A stretch of DNA of 5,710 bases, taken from the IMG/VR virus record IMGVR_UViG_2703719354_000010; one strand, given 5' to 3'. This DNA comes from a virus. Taxonomy: Duplodnaviria; Heunggongvirae; Uroviricota; Caudoviricetes. The notes under the pieces are model-generated. The model saw only the letters and a program-made list of their open reading frames with translations. It did not search any database and was not told where the DNA came from. The position numbers and the translations under genes are program-made. How positions within the stretch are numbered: the first letter of the stretch is position 1; every line of letters begins with the position of its first letter. Below, in pieces: positions 1,436 to 5,710 of the stretch.

Positions 1436-2097
1436 ATATCTACGAAAGAATTGATGGCAGCAAATACCGAAATATTTGGGTAGTTGGCGATCTGCACGGA
1501 TGCTACACGAACCTGATGAAAAAACTGGAGACGATAGGATTCGACACCAAAAAAGACCTGCTTATCTCGGTGGGCGATTTGGTTGATCGCGGTACAGAGA
1601 ACGTAGAATGCCTGGAATTAATCACATTCCCCTGGTTCAGAGCTGTACGTGGAAACCATGAGCAAATGATGATTGATGGCTTATCAGAGCGTGGAAACGT
1701 CAATCACTGGCTGCTTAATGGCGGTGGCTGGTTCTTTAATCTCGATTACGACAAAGAAATTCTGGCTAAAGCTCTTGCCCATAAAGCAGATGAACTTCCG
1801 TTAATCATCGAACTGGTGAGTAAAGGAAAAAAATATGTCATCTGCCACGCCGATTATCCTTGTGATAAATACGAGTTTGGAAAGCCAGTTGATCATCAGC
1901 AGGTAATCTGGAACCGCGAACGAATCAGCAACTCACAAGACGGGATCGTGAAAGAAATCAAAGGCGCGGACACGTTCATCTTTGGTCATACGCCAGCAGT
2001 GAAACCACTCAAATTTGCCAACCAGATGTATATCGATACTGGCGCAGTGTTCTGCGGAAACCTCACATTGATTCAGGTACAGGGAGAAGGCGCATGA
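1432..2097 (+). CDS. ninI: Serine/threonine protein phosphatase (lambda PPase, ORF221 family; calcineurin-like metallophosphoesterase)
   Basis: 221 aa, [32 protein letters not shown]...GDLVDRG...RGNHE..., carrying the canonical metallophosphatase motifs GDxHG, GDxxDRG and GNHE. Near-identical to lambda phosphatase as recalled. ATGA overlaps link it to ninG upstream and Q downstream. Confidence 0.93.
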
Positions 2098-2717
2098 GAC
2101 TCGAAAGCGTAGCTAAATTTCATTCGCCAAAAAGCCCGATGATGAGCGACTCACCACGGGCTACGGCTTCTGACTCTCTTTCTGGTACTGATGTGATGGC
2201 TGCTATGGGGATGGCGCAATCACAAGCCGGATTCGGAATGGCTGCATTCTGCGGTAAGCATGAACTCAGCCAGAACGACAAACAAAAGGCTATCAACTAT
2301 CTGATGCAATTTGCACACAAGGTATCGGGGAAATACCGTGGTGTGGCAAAGCTCGAAGGAAATACTAAGGCAAAGGTACTGCAAGTGCTCGCAACATTCG
2401 CTTATGCGGATTATTGCCGTAGTGCCGCTACGCCGGGCGCAAGATGCAGAGATTGCCACGGTACAGGCCGTGCGGTTGATATAGCCAAAACAGAGCAGTG
2501 GGGGATAGTTGCTGAGAAAGAGTGCGGAAGATGTAAAGGCGTCGGTTATTCAAGAATGCCAGCAAGCGCCGCATATCGCGCTGTGACGATGCTAATCCCA
2601 AACCTTACCCAACCCACCTGGTCACGCACTGTTAAGCCGCTGTATGACGCTCTGGTTGTGCAATGCCACAAGGAAGAGTCAATCGCAGACAACATTTTGA
2701 ATGCGATCACACGTTAG
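2094..2717 (+). CDS. Q: Late gene antiterminator Q (lambda Q type)
   Basis: 207 aa, [83 protein letters not shown]...[12 protein letters not shown]...[10 protein letters not shown]..., same length as lambda Q and near-identical, including the zinc-binding Cys cluster. Followed by a pR'-like promoter. Confidence 0.95.
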
Positions 2718-2759
2718 CGCCATGATTGCCACGGATGGCAACATATTAACGGCATAATA

Positions 2760-2805
2760 TTGACTTTTTGAATAACTTTGGGGAAACTTGACACCAATAA
2801 TGGGC
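2760..2805 (+). promoter_or_regulatory. pR'-like late promoter with Q-utilisation (qut) region: -35 TTGACT (2760..2765), 17-nt spacer, -10 GAAACT (2783..2788), then a -10-like pause element AATAAT in the initial transcribed region
   Basis: About 45 nt after the Q stop the sequence aTTGACTttttgaataactttgggGAAACTtgacaccaataatggg is co-linear with lambda pR' (TTGACTtattgaataaaattgggTAAATTtgactcaacgatggg) as I recall it. Similarity to lambda ends near 2806. Confidence 0.6.
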
Positions 2806-2929
2806 GTTTTTTACATGTCATTGATGAGTCTCAATAACCTGCCGCCGAGTAGTTTTTATGCTCTGAATTGTATTTGTGTAGTAAACATGCTGACTGCAAT
2901 GTAATAGAGTTTTTTTAGCCTGTAACCTC

Positions 2930-2958
2930 TTGACGGCATTGAATTGCTTTTGTTATGA
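2930..2958 (+). promoter_or_regulatory. Possible sigma70 promoter inside the AT-rich island: TTGACG (2930..2935), 17-nt spacer, TTATGA (2953..2958)
   Basis: Good -35 hexamer, mediocre -10, located just upstream of the membrane-protein ORF. Pattern match only; AT-rich DNA produces many such matches. Confidence 0.25.
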
Positions 2959-3713
2959 GTTGTAAGCCAATGTTATCATCTTGTATTGGGGTGGTTATGA
3001 AGGATGGTGCGCTGCTCAGGAGTTCTTCACTTTTTATTGCCTACATGGGATGCCTTGGATGGGGGAGTGCTTATTTCTATGGATGGGGTACTTCTTTTTA
3101 CTACGGCTTCCCATGGTGGATTGTAGGTGCAGGTGTTGATGATGTTGCCAGAAGTTTATTTTTTGCAGTTATCGTCATTGCTATATTTCTTATCGGTTGG
3201 GGTATTGGTGTTGTATTCTTTTTCGCAGTGAAAAGAAAACATTCTATGCAAGAGCTAAATGTATTTCGCCTTTATTTTGCTGTGGAATTATTGTTTGTGC
3301 CGGCAATTATTGAGTTTTCTATATTGAGACAGAAGATTCAGGTACCTCTTTTGCTACTGTCAGCAGCGATTGCGCTGGCGGTTACAATTTCGATAAGATC
3401 TTATGGGCGATTTTTATCGGTATCATGCTTCTATGATAAGCCATTTATAAAAAAACATTTTTTTGAGATTGTGATGATTGCTTTTGTGGCATATTTCTGG
3501 CTTTTTTCATTTCTGACAGGATATTACAAACCACAGTTTAAGAAAGAATATGAAATGATTAATTATAATGATGGTTGGTATTATGTTCTTGCTCGTTATG
3601 ATAATTGTCTGGTTTTGTCTACTTCTTTCAATGCAGGTAGTAAAAGGTTTGTCATTTATCAATCAGCACAAGATAAGAATCTTCAGGTTGATATTGTAAG
3701 GACCAGAATTTAA
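2955..3713 (+). CDS. Hypothetical polytopic inner-membrane protein (252 codons from the first ATG; alternative starts ATG 2970 and ATG 2997 give 247 or 238 aa), function unknown; cargo (moron) gene
   Basis: A 759-nt ORF in DNA that is AT-rich by eye, where stop codons should be frequent, so it is very unlikely to be open by chance. The product has an aromatic/Gly-rich N-terminus (GWGSAYFYGWGTSFYYGFPWW) and at least four hydrophobic helix-length segments (FFAVIVIAIFLIGWGIGVVFFFAV, LYFAVELLFVPAIIEFSIL, VPLLLLSAAIALAVTISI, FFEIVMIAFVAYFWLFSFLTGYY). A ~60-aa polar C-terminal tail (KPQFKKEYEMINYNDGWYYVLARYDNC...DIVRTRI) follows. No convincing SD for any start. I do not recognise the family. Confidence 0.7.
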   Translation: MSCKPMLSSCIGVVMKDGALLRSSSLFIAYMGCLGWGSAYFYGWGTSFYYGFPWWIVGAGVDDVARSLFFAVIVIAIFLIGWGIGVVFFFAVKRKHSMQELNVFRLYFAVELLFVPAIIEFSILRQKIQVPLLLLSAAIALAVTISIRSYGRFLSVSCFYDKPFIKKHFFEIVMIAFVAYFWLFSFLTGYYKPQFKKEYEMINYNDGWYYVLARYDNCLVLSTSFNAGSKRFVIYQSAQDKNLQVDIVRTRI

Positions 3714-3846
3714 TTGGCTGCATAAATAATATTTTAAGTTGCAAGTTGGCTATTCGTAGGAATAGAACCTTAGGCATGCTGAATGCGTTTTCTGAACATT
3801 GTTTTATAAACTGTGTCTGCTTGCTGTTGTGATCCTGCTTTTAGTG

Positions 3847-3957
3847 ATGGTGATGATGGATTTCACCAGCAGGATAATGTTGGTACTGACTGATGGCGCT
3901 CTGGTCTGCGGCATTGTGGTATTGCTGTGGCCGATGATGAAAGAACAGAATGAATAA
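3847..3957 (+). CDS. Candidate small hydrophobic protein (36 aa from ATG 3847; in-frame GTG 3829 or TTG 3799 would give 42 or 52 aa)
   Basis: Frame 1 reads MVMMDFTSRIMLVLTDGALVCGIVVLLWPMMKEQNE then TAA 3955..3957: one transmembrane-length hydrophobic segment with a charged C-terminus. No SD and below the ORF-track size cut-off. The region is also open on the - strand (3841..4047), so coding status is unresolved. Confidence 0.25.
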   Translation: MVMMDFTSRIMLVLTDGALVCGIVVLLWPMMKEQNE

Positions 3958-4092
3958 TTCTTGACTTTTTTGTTTACTGTTTATTAAAAAATCAACCGCA
4001 TGGTGAATCCTCCTTGGAGGGGCTAAATGATCGAGTTTTAAGGGCACGTAGCGAGTTCTGTTTGATCATTGCAGAACTTAGCGGGAGGCGCC

Positions 4093-4203
4093 ATGCGTAC
4101 ATCACTAATGTTATTTCCTTCTATCATTTTCCTTGTGAGTTCTGGCTGCGCATGGCGCGGCCTTTTTTTTATGACCTGCCACTGGCAGATGGTCATCCTG
4201 TGA
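4093..4203 (+). CDS. Candidate 36-aa peptide with a lipoprotein-like signal sequence; overlaps the terminator hairpin and may be spurious
   Basis: GGGAGG (4083..4088) lies 4 nt upstream of ATG 4093. Product MRTSLMLFPSIIFLVSSGCAWRGLFFMTCHWQMVIL, with a positively charged n-region, hydrophobic core and Cys at position 19. The mature part would be only 17 aa, and the FF run comes from the terminator T-tract. Confidence 0.2.
   Translation: MRTSLMLFPSIIFLVSSGCAWRGLFFMTCHWQMVIL
4144..4170 (+). terminator. Rho-independent terminator: GC-rich hairpin GGCTGCGC-(ATG)-GCGCGGCC followed by T8
   Basis: Read directly: 8-bp stem 4144..4151 / 4155..4162 (seven Watson-Crick pairs and one G-U), 3-nt loop, then tttttttt at 4163..4170. 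The complementary strand has no T-tract after the hairpin, so it is oriented with the late operon. Confidence 0.7.
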
Positions 4204-4256
4204 TTTGATTCCGCTTCCGGCTTTTTAACTCTGTTCCTCTACACGGGAGAAATTCG

Positions 4257-5710
4257 ATGTCGATTAAACATTACGATGTTGTCAGGGCGGCGTCGCCGTC
4301 AGACCTTGCGGAAAAGCTGACACACAAACTGAAAGAGGGCTGGCAGCCATACGGCGGATCGGTTGCCATTACGCCGTACACACTGATGCAGGCGGTGGCT
4401 ATTGAAGGAGAGCCACAGGTCGGCCCTTCATCTGAGCCGGATTGGTACTACGTCATCGTACTGGCCGGGCAGTCCAATGCCATGGCTTACGGTGAAGGGC
4501 TTCCGCTGCCGGATTCATACGATGCTCCGGATCCGCGCATTAAACAGCTGGCGCGCCGCAGTACAGTGACGCCGGGCGGGGCTGCCTGCAGATATAACGA
4601 TATTATTCCGGCTGACCACTGTCTGCATGATGTGCAGGATATGAGTACGCTGAATCATCCGAGGGCTGACCTGAGCAAAGGGCAGTACGGCTGTGTCGGC
4701 CAGGGTTTACATATTGCCAAAAAACTGCTCCCGTATATCCCGAATAACGCGGGGATCCTGCTGGTACCATGCTGTCGTGGTGGTTCGGCATTTACCCAGG
4801 GCGCGGAGGGGACATTCAGCGAGTCCACGGGGGCCAGTCAGGATTCGGCACGCTGGGGGGTGGGCAAGCCGTTATATCAGGATCTGATTTCCCGCACAAA
4901 AGCGGCATTGCAGAAAAATCCCAAAAACGTTCTGCTGGCCGTCTGCTGGATGCAGGGTGAGTTTGACATGAGCGCCGCCACCCACGTACAGCAACCTGCG
5001 CTGTTTACAGCCATGCTGACACAGTTTCGTGCTGACCTCTCCGTGTTTAACGCGCAGTACCATGGTGGCAGTGCTGCAGATGTGCCGTGGGTTTGTGGTG
5101 ACACGACGTATTACTGGAAAAATACATACGCTACCCAGTACGACACCGTGTACGGCGGGGATAAAAACAGGGGGAGGGAGGGGGNNNNNNNNNNNCATGG
5201 TGGCAGTGCTGTAAATGTGCCGTGGATTTGTGGTGACACGACGTATTACTGGAAAAATACATACGCTACCCAGTACGACACCGTGTACGGCGGGTATAAA
5301 AACAGGGAGAGTGAGGGCGTTTATTTTGTGCCCTTCATGACAGACGGTAACGGCGTCAATACCGCCACTAACGCGCCGGCAGAAGATCCGGATATTCCGG
5401 CATCAGGATATTACGGTGCGGCATCGAGAACGAATGGAAACCAGGTATCATCAAACCGCCCGACACATTTCAGTTCATGGGCGCGCAGGAGCATTATTCC
5501 GGATCGTCTGGCAACCGCTATTCTGAACGCAGCCGGGCGCACCTCCGCCTTCATCAGTGGTAAGGCACCGGAAATCAAACCCTCGCCCGGCGGCAACACG
5601 CCATCGGGTCCGTCTGCAGATACGTCCGTTCGCACAATCTCCCTGCTGCCGGCAGCCGGAGAGGCTGCTGCGCAGGGCTGGAGCATTAAGGATGGCGGAA
5701 TTCAGTTGTC
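4257..5710 (+). CDS. nanS: Prophage-encoded sialate (9-O-acetyl-Neu5Ac) O-acetylesterase, NanS-p / YjhS family (SASA/SGNH-type esterase); 3'-partial, interrupted by a scaffold gap
   Basis: GGGAGA (4245..4250) lies 6 nt upstream of ATG 4257. Frame 0 is open from 4257 to the window end: MSIKHYDVVRAASPSDLAEKLTHKLKEGWQPYGGSVAITPYTLMQAVAIEGEPQ...YYVIVLAGQSNAMAYGEG...LLVPCCRGGSAF...CWMQGEFD... It has the N-terminal domain typical of these prophage esterases and a GQSN catalytic-serine motif. Missing from the ORF track because of the N run and no in-window stop. Confidence 0.88.
   Translation, partial: MSIKHYDVVRAASPSDLAEKLTHKLKEGWQPYGGSVAITPYTLMQAVAIEGEPQVGPSSEPDWYYVIVLAGQSNAMAYGEGLPLPDSYDAPDPRIKQLARRSTVTPGGAACRYNDIIPADHCLHDVQDMSTLNHPRADLSKGQYGCVGQGLHIAKKLLPYIPNNAGILLVPCCRGGSAFTQGAEGTFSESTGASQDSARWGVGKPLYQDLISRTKAALQKNPKNVLLAVCWMQGEFDMSAATHVQQPALFTAMLTQFRADLSVFNAQYHGGSAADVPWVCGDTTYYWKNTYATQYDTVYGGDKNRGREGXXXXHGGSAVNVPWICGDTTYYWKNTYATQYDTVYGGYKNRESEGVYFVPFMTDGNGVNTATNAPAEDPDIPASGYYGAASRTNGNQVSSNRPTHFSSWARRSIIPDRLATAILNAAGRTSAFISGKAPEIKPSPGGNTPSGPSADTSVRTISLLPAAGEAAAQGWSIKDGGIQL
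5061..5319. repeat. Direct duplication of ~124 bp flanking the N gap (copy 1 5061..5184, copy 2 5196..~5319); probable unmerged overlapping contig ends
   Basis: Both copies begin catggtggcagtgctg...gtgccgtgg...tgtggtgacacgacgtattactggaaaaatacatacgctacccagtacgacaccgtgtacggcggg. They differ at a few positions; copy 1 ends in a G-rich run (cagggggagggagggg) directly before the Ns, where copy 2 reads cagggagagtgagggcg. Confidence 0.85.
5185..5195. other. Scaffold/assembly gap (11 N)
   Basis: A run of n characters inside the nanS-p reading frame. Confidence 0.99.

Follow-up and report, generated by a model that had tools for sequence, protein, structure and literature searches.

A known and widespread cargo cassette with the small RNA gene pasD1 occupies the interval between Q and nanS-p of a lambdoid prophage

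In Shiga toxin (Stx) phages the late region is laid out as Q, pR', tRNAs where present, stxAB, nanS-p and the lysis genes, and a moron coding sequence (CDS) plus small RNAs (sRNAs) downstream of pR' has been published for prophages of enterohaemorrhagic Escherichia coli (EHEC) (Tree et al. 2014, PMC4104026). The closest described relatives of the locus considered here, the interval 2806-4256 in a 5,710-nt stretch of a Caudoviricetes virus (IMG/VR record IMGVR_UViG_2703719354_000010; the whole stretch is referred to as the window), are the PasD sRNA loci of enteropathogenic E. coli (EPEC) and EHEC and the late leader of phage 434. In EPEC E2348/69, pasD1 occupies NC_011601 1060260-1060432 (173 nt) and pasD2 741157-741328 (172 nt), the latter in the gene order E2348C_0686 (717 nt), E2348C_0687 (159 nt), pasD2, E2348C_0688 (1851 nt) (Pearl Mizrahi et al. 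2021, PMC8550237, supplement). The same study confirmed the size of PasD by Northern blot and its Hfq-dependent stability in EPEC, that is, for the identical sequence in another strain; Hfq RIL-seq gave many PasD partners, virulence genes among them (for PasD1 these partners include aceE, uspA, yhdW and perB), and the Hfq-bound chimeras of PasD1 involve core and virulence mRNAs bearing CUCACA, which is complementary to the UGUGAG seed (PMC8550237). PasD2 is part of the most abundant CsrA-bound RNA pair, in a CsrA ternary complex (bioRxiv 10.64898/2026.08.12.744399), and in phage 2B8 (NC_049952) pasD immediately precedes the esterase gene (Zhu, Shabalina & Storz 2026, bioRxiv 10.64898/2026.05.13.724894). 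The record of phage 434 (OL657226; Feiss et al. 2022, PMC9119081) lists, in this order, a putative membrane protein (CPT_434_68), TciB (CPT_434_69), a second putative membrane protein (CPT_434_70), a terminator and a SASA esterase, followed by a pinholin and a SAR endolysin.

Compared with these systems, the interval is a known, widespread and already sequenced prophage cargo cassette. By identity and architecture it is, with high probability, a conserved three-part lysogenic-conversion ('moron') cassette placed in the leader between pR' and the nanS-p/lysis genes. The first-pass annotation, prepared by a model from the letters alone, had seen here one long open reading frame (ORF) for a membrane protein plus small ORFs. 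Both are present, the long frame at 2955/2997-3713, and one of the 'small ORFs' (4014-4208) coincides with an sRNA gene, PasD1, which that reading had missed. The three parts and the flanking genes are as follows.

2997-3713, plus strand: 238-aa polytopic membrane protein of PF27470 ('TfpB' label), PGAP 'STM1630 family', phrog_1521; supported by the ORF, phrog_1521 (E 2e-154) and a precomputed PF27470 assignment
3799-3957, plus strand: 52-aa DUF3927 ('TciB-like') small hydrophobic protein with a TTG start; PF13064 (E 3.4e-14), phrog_1470 (E 2.5e-17)
3998-4170, plus strand: PasD1 sRNA gene (EcOnc13 homologue) with a 5' stem-loop domain, the seed UGUGAG and an intrinsic terminator; 173/173 identity to NC_011601.1 1060260-1060432
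2094-2717, plus strand: left flank, antiterminator Q gene of lambda type; PF03589 Antiterm (E 1.2e-57), 96% nucleotide identity to lambda Q
4257-5710, plus strand: right flank, 5' part of nanS-p (SASA family sialate O-acetylesterase), extending beyond the window; 99% identical to annotated SASA esterase genes

Identity, edges and spread of the cassette

The assignment of the sRNA part is the firmest. Window positions 3998-4170 reproduce PasD1 base for base, with the same seed and terminator, and agree with PasD2 in 168 of 173 aligned columns (four substitutions and a 1-nt indel); the complement of the published Northern probe is matched exactly at 4131-4154. The neighbours are also the same, with a 717-nt membrane gene and a 159-nt DUF3927 gene upstream and nanS-p downstream as for pasD2, and the context of a lambdoid prophage with Q upstream (2094-2717) and nanS-p directly downstream (4257) repeats the order found in prophage PP2 of E2348/69. 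The predicted fold (-56.9 kcal/mol, z -2.1) comprises a long 5' stem-loop domain, a largely unpaired seed region and the terminator; the seed itself, TGTGAG at 4134-4139, is partly paired in the minimum-free-energy structure and unpaired in the centroid structure. In Rfam, the model of the prophage-associated Salmonella sRNA STnc100 (RF02076) aligns over its positions 1-206 at 3968-4173, including the 5' hairpin, the central stems and the terminator, albeit with 37.7 bits (E 1.1e-5) against a gathering threshold of 47. Zhu et al. find PasD and STnc100 structurally related and propose a common ancestry (bioRxiv 10.64898/2026.05.13.724894), whereas the seed regions described to date for STnc100 are unlike that of PasD and no BLAST link exists between the two (Zhu et al.). 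Weak Rfam matches to GcvB, SorX and asX2 (4046-4208) were dismissed, as they fall far under their gathering scores and the SorX and asX2 alignments consist mainly of the terminator hairpin. As in the EHEC layout of Tree et al., sRNA gene(s) follow the cargo CDS and precede the next ORF of the phage; the locus differs in that PasD is co-directional with pR', whereas the anti-sRNAs AsxR and AgvB are short (51-60 nt) and convergent (PMC4104026).

The cassette as a whole is equally well represented elsewhere. Pairwise blastn gives 99.35% identity to prophage PP4 of EPEC E2348/69 over window 2601-4281, 98.9% to phage 2B8, and 98.6% to phage 434 and E2348/69 PP2 over window 2836-4400. Among phage genomes, the segment 2700-4400 is found in Escherichia phage 2B8 (100% coverage, 98.8%) and phage 434 (91% coverage, 99.0%). 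In megablast this segment matches 2151 of 5426 complete E. coli genomes, and 682 of these 5426 carry at least 80% of it at one place, with 250 records at least 99% identical. Carriers thus comprise about one-eighth of the complete E. coli genomes, the textbook phage 434, and EPEC and EHEC prophages. In RefSeq the membrane gene is annotated as hypothetical or as 'STM1630 family' protein, the small gene after it as DUF3927 family protein and nanS-p as SASA esterase. The suggestion that the slot holds an unusual occupant with an unrecognised gene has consequently to be withdrawn: the cassette is at least 98.6% identical in 434, 2B8 and two E2348/69 prophages, and the membrane protein already belongs to PF27470 and phrog_1521. 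The counter-case raised at first pass, that the interval matches a common and well-annotated lambdoid segment of known function, applies as far as identity and commonness go, and with respect to known function for the sRNA part only.

Two left-hand versions of the locus exist. One has a lambda-type Q and pR' (window, 2B8, PP4) and the other a Q82-like Q (434, PP2), with the cassette from 2836 onwards common to both. Phage 434 has the same gene order as the window, continued by the SASA esterase, pinholin and SAR endolysin, but differs by its Q82-like Q with an own promoter, an intact leader terminator, lpxR upstream and a PasD2-type allele; the window has the lambda-type Q/pR' and a degenerate leader terminator. 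In 434B, DLP12 sequences stand in place of this region (PMC9119081). Taken together, the window combines a PP4-type left side (lambda-type Q, PasD1 allele) with a PP2-type right side (nanS-p), as does phage 2B8.

The left edge agrees with the one proposed at first pass as the point where lambda similarity is lost, and the junctions of the interval are module boundaries. On the left, lambda (J02459) matches window 2000-2792 with 96% identity, and HK446/mEp234-type phages align up to ~2804. By eye, the lambda/HK446 alignment covers the -35, the Q-binding region, the -10 and the sequence ...AATGGG (to ~2804) and is divergent thereafter, so that the breakpoint at ~2806 is correct. Homology in blastn to phage 434 and EPEC PP2, which have the other Q type, begins at 2836 and marks a second module boundary. 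On the right, similarity to Stx phages begins at 4244-4264, at the start of nanS-p (ATG 4257). In the Stx1a phage LC567819, stx1AB stands directly 5' of yjhS/nanS-p; this, together with the Stx-phage match only from ~4244-4264 on, makes the interval positionally equivalent to stx, and the idea of an Stx or moron slot in which the island replaces stx and tRNAs is borne out. ARAGORN found no tRNA gene in the window and no stx homology was seen in the island, again as first proposed. The locus therefore shares with the Stx-phage layout the slot and the downstream nanS-p and lysis genes, and differs from it by two membrane proteins in place of the AB5 toxin and by having no tRNAs. The island is not present in lambda or HK446, in which S comes after pR'.

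Composition sets the island apart from its surroundings. The interval has 38.8% G+C, compared with 48.5% in the nin region, 50.6% in Q (48.6% at third codon positions, GC3) and 56.3% in nanS-p (GC3 61.9%). Windowed calculation hence confirms the compositional break that had been judged by eye; the accompanying estimate in the mid-30s per cent suits the leader (2806-2996, 36.6%) and the membrane gene (36.3%, GC3 30.5%) and is slightly low for the whole interval, to which the DUF3927 gene contributes 43.4% and PasD 47.4%. The minimum of a 300-nt sliding profile, 0.30-0.34, is reached around 3300-3800. The island is a moron in the sense of additional DNA between conserved phage genes with a composition unlike that of its flanks.

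Expression from the repressed prophage and the PasD terminator

The signals relevant to transcription of the cassette are listed below.

2760-2804, plus strand: putative pR'-like late promoter region; -35 TTGACT (2760-2765), Q-binding-element homologue, -10 GAAACT (2783-2788) and a start region with AATAAT (2796-2801), from alignment with lambda and HK446 (annotated pR')
2836-2857, plus strand: degenerate remnant of the 434/PP2 leader terminator; -4.6 kcal/mol, z -0.9, no hairpin before a U run
2930-2979, plus strand: candidate promoter(s) of the membrane gene; TTGACG (2930-2935) with an extended -10-like TGtTATGAG, or TTGTTA (2950-2955) with TATCAT (2974-2979)
3961-3990, plus strand: putative PasD promoter; -35 TTGACT (3961-3966) and AT-rich -10 region TATTAAAAA, read from the sequence
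4144-4170, plus strand: Rho-independent PasD terminator (8-bp GC stem plus U8); -15.2 kcal/mol, z -2.8

Published data from uninduced EPEC reveal that the cassette is active while its prophage is repressed. In PP4, the DESeq2 baseMean values, which are not length-normalised, are 6 for Q, 147 for the membrane gene, 8652 for pasD1 and 5 for the holin, with DUF3927 not listed and nanS-p absent; in PP2 they are 69 for Q, 226 for the membrane gene, 37 for DUF3927, 11017 for pasD2, 102 for nanS-p and 3.5 for the holin (PMC8550237 Table S2). From these values it follows that the cassette is expressed from a repressed prophage and that expression collapses past the PasD terminator. Expression in the lysogen, with Q and holin nearly silent, fits a lysogenic-conversion moron, and few accessory sRNAs of EPEC are as abundant as PasD.

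A scan of 2600-4400 returned a single site, 4144-4162, so that the PasD terminator is the first strong one after pR'; no terminator-like site was found in 2600-4143, and specifically none like that of the lambda 6S RNA/tR' leader, which lies ~200 nt past the pR' start. In phage 434 the annotated leader terminator (-12.5 kcal/mol, z -3.6, followed by U8) is strong, as it is in the 434/PP2 version generally, whereas in 2836-2857 of the window CCC is changed to CCT and two or three G and one or two T are lost from the 3' arm and the U tract. In lambda-Q versions the PasD terminator is to be annotated as the sole strong terminator that separates pR' from the lysis genes, which corrects the existing picture.

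The promoters are less certain. Positions 2760-2804 probably work as pR', judging from the alignment, in which the lambda pR' elements are conserved, the -10 reading GAAACT in the window and TAAATT in lambda. For the membrane gene, the elements in 2930-2979 may provide promoter function: the promoter scan lists the 2950/2979 pair, and homology of a plasmid copy of the gene in enterotoxigenic E. coli (ETEC) starts at 2926, just 5' of TTGACG, the DNA further upstream being unrelated, which suggests a promoter travelling with the membrane gene. The PasD promoter would be located at 3961-3990; the consensus scan did not call it, and the element is invariant in 434, 2B8 and PP2 and stands at the right distance from the published PasD 5' end.

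These elements can be assembled into a model of transcription to which we assign an even chance. The cassette would be transcribed in the lysogen independently of Q, either from promoters of its own (TTGACG at 2930 and TTGACT at 3961) or, in the lambda-Q version, from pR' transcripts, which become a possible source because the 434-type leader terminator is degenerate in the window; pR' would feed the cassette if it is constitutive as in lambda. Transcription would end at the PasD terminator (4144-4170), which would thus form a tR'-like barrier before nanS-p and the lysis genes. Upon induction, Q-modified polymerase would override this terminator and read through the cassette into the late genes. 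Apart from this model, and with low confidence, the 238-aa protein would act alone, as an inner-membrane envelope protein expressed in the lysogen.

Several points weigh against this account. As matches to the consensus, the candidate promoters are weak, and the scan found 3 sites where 4.5 are expected in shuffled sequence. The baseMean values, besides lacking normalisation for length, describe EPEC rather than the strain to which the window belongs. In such AT-rich DNA, H-NS silencing or Rho-dependent termination could override the read-through model. Both island proteins are labelled hypothetical in all sources, and the role of envelope factor is read from predicted topology and gene neighbourhoods only.

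The PF27470 membrane protein and its possible roles

The membrane gene has three in-frame ATGs, at 2955 (the start in the ORF list, 252 aa), 2970 (current RefSeq, 744 nt, 247 aa) and 2997 (238 aa). In homologues from Salmonella, Citrobacter, Klebsiella and Yersinia, the first residue is the one equivalent to ATG 2997, and the ETEC copy has a stop immediately after the position equivalent to ATG 2955; the 238-aa form is therefore the conserved one. A Shine-Dalgarno-like GGGGTGG run lies just 5' of ATG 2997. The annotation is thus to be corrected to a true start at 2997.

The family is well delimited and lacks named relatives. The protein matches phrog_1521 (unknown function, E 2e-154), and a precomputed PF27470.1 label attaches to every homologue in a 5.8-billion-protein collection, including the 100%-identical cluster representatives; a local Pfam-A scan, in a copy from which the PF27470 model is apparently missing, and an NCBIfam scan gave no match. 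In RefSeq, WP_001299184.1 bears the name 'STM1630 family protein'. Among 1.84 billion representatives, a profile search recovered 76 clusters, all unnamed and only of the PF27470 family, and a second, word-indexed profile search found no named relative. Close members are enterobacterial. The distant full-length members examined come from Neisseria, Actinobacillus, Gallibacterium, Avibacterium, Pasteurella and unnamed read assemblies (20-29% identity), with one distant full-length Klebsiella member at 14%. TfpB is the name of an ORF in the Moraxella pilin-inversion region, and type IV pilin accessory proteins such as Moraxella TfpB and D. nodosus FimB may be the origin of the label; no named TfpB/FimB protein occurs among the matches, and no type IV pilin gene in any examined neighbourhood of PF27470 copies.

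Full-length alignment with 22 members shows 18 invariant and ~50 nearly invariant columns. Conservation peaks in an aromatic/glycine-rich N-terminal stretch, AY.G.LGWGSAYFYGWG.S.YYGFPWW, and at the junction of the fifth transmembrane (TM) helix with the beta domain, YFW.FSF..G.YKPQ.KKEY. A first AlphaFold2 run with 23 close homologues was unusable (pLDDT 59); after distant relatives had been added, the model reached pLDDT 81.2 and pTM 0.74. It predicts helices at 6-36, 47-78, 89-111, 116-136 and 155-181, followed by a C-terminal five-strand beta domain. The model resembles no viral or PDB protein, and no enzyme-like fold or motif was found in it.

Salmonella STM1630 is alike over its full length (46% identity), in the layout of 5 TM helices plus beta domain and in the motif AY.YGWG..YYGFPWW; it differs in being chromosomal beside sseJ, not in a prophage late leader, and in standing without DUF3927 and PasD partners. 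STM1630 is in a list of genes co-regulated with Salmonella pathogenicity island 2 (SPI-2) (PMC2639726), and its marked deletion was hypermotile in a screen (PMC4219756), some of whose motility effects are suggested by a cassette-free follow-up to be of polar origin (PMC4534456). The literature on tciB, DUF3927, STM1630 and TfpB yielded no functional study of either island protein, which agrees with the first-pass view of the long membrane ORF as one without demonstrated function.

The 52-aa protein belongs to DUF3927 by a PF13064 score of 53 bits against a cut-off of 25, over residues 7-50 of 52. It is almost entirely hydrophobic, is called TciB in 434 and DUF3927 in RefSeq, and carries in phrog_1470 the label 'TciB-like inhibition of cell division or resistance to colicin'. 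The name TciB comes from tciA-tciB-tciC of phage P1, where a protein in the same phrog_1470 and DUF3927 families occurs; there, however, the neighbours of tciB are tciA and tciC, and the tci genes are non-essential, with a function given only as an either/or guess. DUF3927 was considered as an obligate partner of the membrane protein and rejected, since it is missing or broken beside many homologues. No copy stands beside the Salmonella, ETEC, Neisseria or Avibacterium homologues. In cassettes of E. albertii (4805-4977) and Escherichia sp. (4790-4920), 83-86% identical, DUF3927 is frameshifted or stopped and the PF27470 gene is intact, with 94-97% amino acid identity.

Genes of the PF27470 family are met in diverse surroundings. 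Distant homologues in Neisseria and Avibacterium are solitary genes amid housekeeping genes, and enteric copies occur also outside prophages, adjoining sseJ, lpxR or eltAB. A scan of genome contigs with one alignment gave 5 loci only. Near the cassette, lpxR is found in phage 434 and EPEC PP2; lpxR as a constant neighbour was rejected, none being present within ~12 kb of the copies in PP4 and in the best-matching chromosome for the window. Another lambdoid prophage, with a different Q type, has a 68%-identical PF27470 gene in its Q-to-nanS-p interval (4001-8717 of its contigs). It is accompanied there by a DNA methyltransferase gene and by lpxR, to which one copy adds pmrD (both immediately downstream), so that the slot holds variable envelope-related cargo around the PF27470 gene. 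One chromosomal site, beside ADH, MCP and LysR genes, holds a PF27470 gene in both Salmonella and Citrobacter rodentium; its divergent neighbour is sseJ (a GDSL lipase/acyltransferase) in the former and a split lpxR pseudogene in the latter. In ETEC contigs, a 59%-identical homologue (gene at 6001-6714) lies ~870 bp upstream of eltAB and divergent from it. These contigs are rich in insertion sequences and carry also the STb toxin gene, and this very common PF27470 variant occurs in 1285 index blocks. For the ETEC plasmid copy, homology to the window (75% identity) begins at 2926 and ends within the gene.

A low-confidence guess for the 238-aa protein is a role in the cell envelope or in membrane homeostasis, in preference to one as a toxin. 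That it acts alone is supported by the solitary distant homologues and by the missing or broken DUF3927 at many loci.

The most durable competing explanation, though a rather unlikely one, is that the membrane protein, by itself or jointly with DUF3927, shields the lysogen from other phages through superinfection exclusion or abortive infection. It is encoded by a prophage moron expressed in the lysogen, and many small membrane proteins of morons have such an effect; membrane exclusion proteins such as P22 SieA, T4 Imm and lambda RexB are established precedents, and the AlphaFold2 model combines a polytopic membrane part and a small domain that is soluble. The phrog_1470 label, with its resistance to colicin, points to envelope-entry phenotypes. 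However, of 5027 PADLOC defence models none matches any of the four island ORFs at E <= 0.1, the AlphaFold2 model is structurally unlike any viral or PDB protein, the distant homologues are single genes among housekeeping functions and not in defence islands, and the enteric copies beside sseJ, lpxR or eltAB lie also outside prophages.

Less probable still is the reading of the protein as an accessory factor of envelope lipids or lipopolysaccharide, travelling with outer-membrane/lipid-modifying or surface virulence genes (LpxR, PmrD, SseJ, LT). The recurrence of such neighbours in independent contexts (lpxR in 434 and PP2, lpxR with pmrD, the lpxR pseudogene/sseJ site, eltAB) and the place of STM1630 among SPI-2 co-regulated genes speak in its favour. 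The absence of lpxR from within ~12 kb in PP4 of E2348/69 or the best-matching chromosome speaks against it, as does the lack of an enzyme-like fold or motif, and the adjacency may merely reflect shared AT-rich, horizontally moved DNA. Comparably speculative is a wider proposal that combines several of these elements. PF27470 would be a new stand-alone envelope factor, co-inherited with toxin, effector or lipid A-modifying genes and directly involved in envelope remodelling, release of toxin or outer-membrane vesicles, or phage exclusion; its expression would be coupled to a constitutive pR', with the PasD terminator as a Q-controlled gate to lysis.

That the island carries a genuinely new toxin or conversion function specific to this prophage is very improbable and largely refuted by distribution: the Stx slot, the foreign composition and a membrane protein without known function or structural relative would suit it, but the cassette is not prophage-specific, being present in 434, 2B8, EPEC PP2/PP4 and 682 complete genomes, the family is already in Pfam and PHROGs, and a 5-TM protein does not have the architecture of secretion signal plus soluble enzyme. 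The envelope-factor reading is retained, at low confidence, for the PF27470 protein, which, as a common, conserved and lysogen-expressed protein without structural relative whose gene recurs beside those of LT, SseJ and LpxR, makes a reasonable, not urgent, knockout target.

Reading frames over PasD and minor observations

One further annotation competes with the sRNA over the same DNA.

4014-4208, plus strand: ORF with a TTG start, overlapping PasD; called a 62-aa 'putative membrane protein' in 434 (CPT_434_70)

The 1-nt indel between the PasD1-type (window, PP4) and PasD2-type (434, PP2, 2B8) alleles wholly changes the last ~30 residues of this ORF, and no family match was found for it in Pfam, NCBIfam, PHROGs or PADLOC. 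Since the frame is not kept between alleles, it is very probably not a gene. Most improbable of all is that 4014-4208 is the coding sequence of a small membrane protein, the RNA being no more than its message: a 62-64-codon ORF is indeed present and the 434 annotators gave it a ribosome-binding site, but an indel between natural variants rewrites its C-terminal half, it has a TTG start and no relatives, what is transcribed is a discrete sRNA of 172-173 nt that depends on Hfq and has targets matching its seed, and the region matches the STnc100 covariance model full-length. On the opposite strand, RefSeq annotates a frameshifted antisense pseudogene over PasD (~4039-4280, minus strand), and a 399-nt antisense ORF is found in PP4; the pseudogene is probably not a real one.

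The RIL-seq data contain 57 chimeras of the membrane-gene mRNA E2348C_0686 (740203-740290) with PasA, with weak statistics (p = 0.02) (PMC8550237). PasA is an sRNA on the far side of nanS-p in E2348/69 PP2, and the chimeras hint at possible cross-regulation within one prophage.

In nanS-p, an 11-N run (5185-5195) lies between 122-nt direct repeats (5061-5182 and 5196-5317) that are 95% identical. The repeated segment (5061-5317) is present in one copy in the intact nanS-p of E2348/69 and of two other chromosomes. The reading frame is open across the N run and repeat, and phage 2B8, whose esterase is annotated as split, aligns there without interruption. Either the repeat arose artefactually in scaffolding, or it is a 135-nt in-frame duplication that 2B8 shares. 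Finally, window 2601-4373 is matched with 99.5% identity by the 3-kb contig JAIITD010000172.1. Labelled 'MAG: Veillonella sp.' and encoding an identical membrane protein, this contig is almost certainly a mis-binned E. coli prophage fragment.

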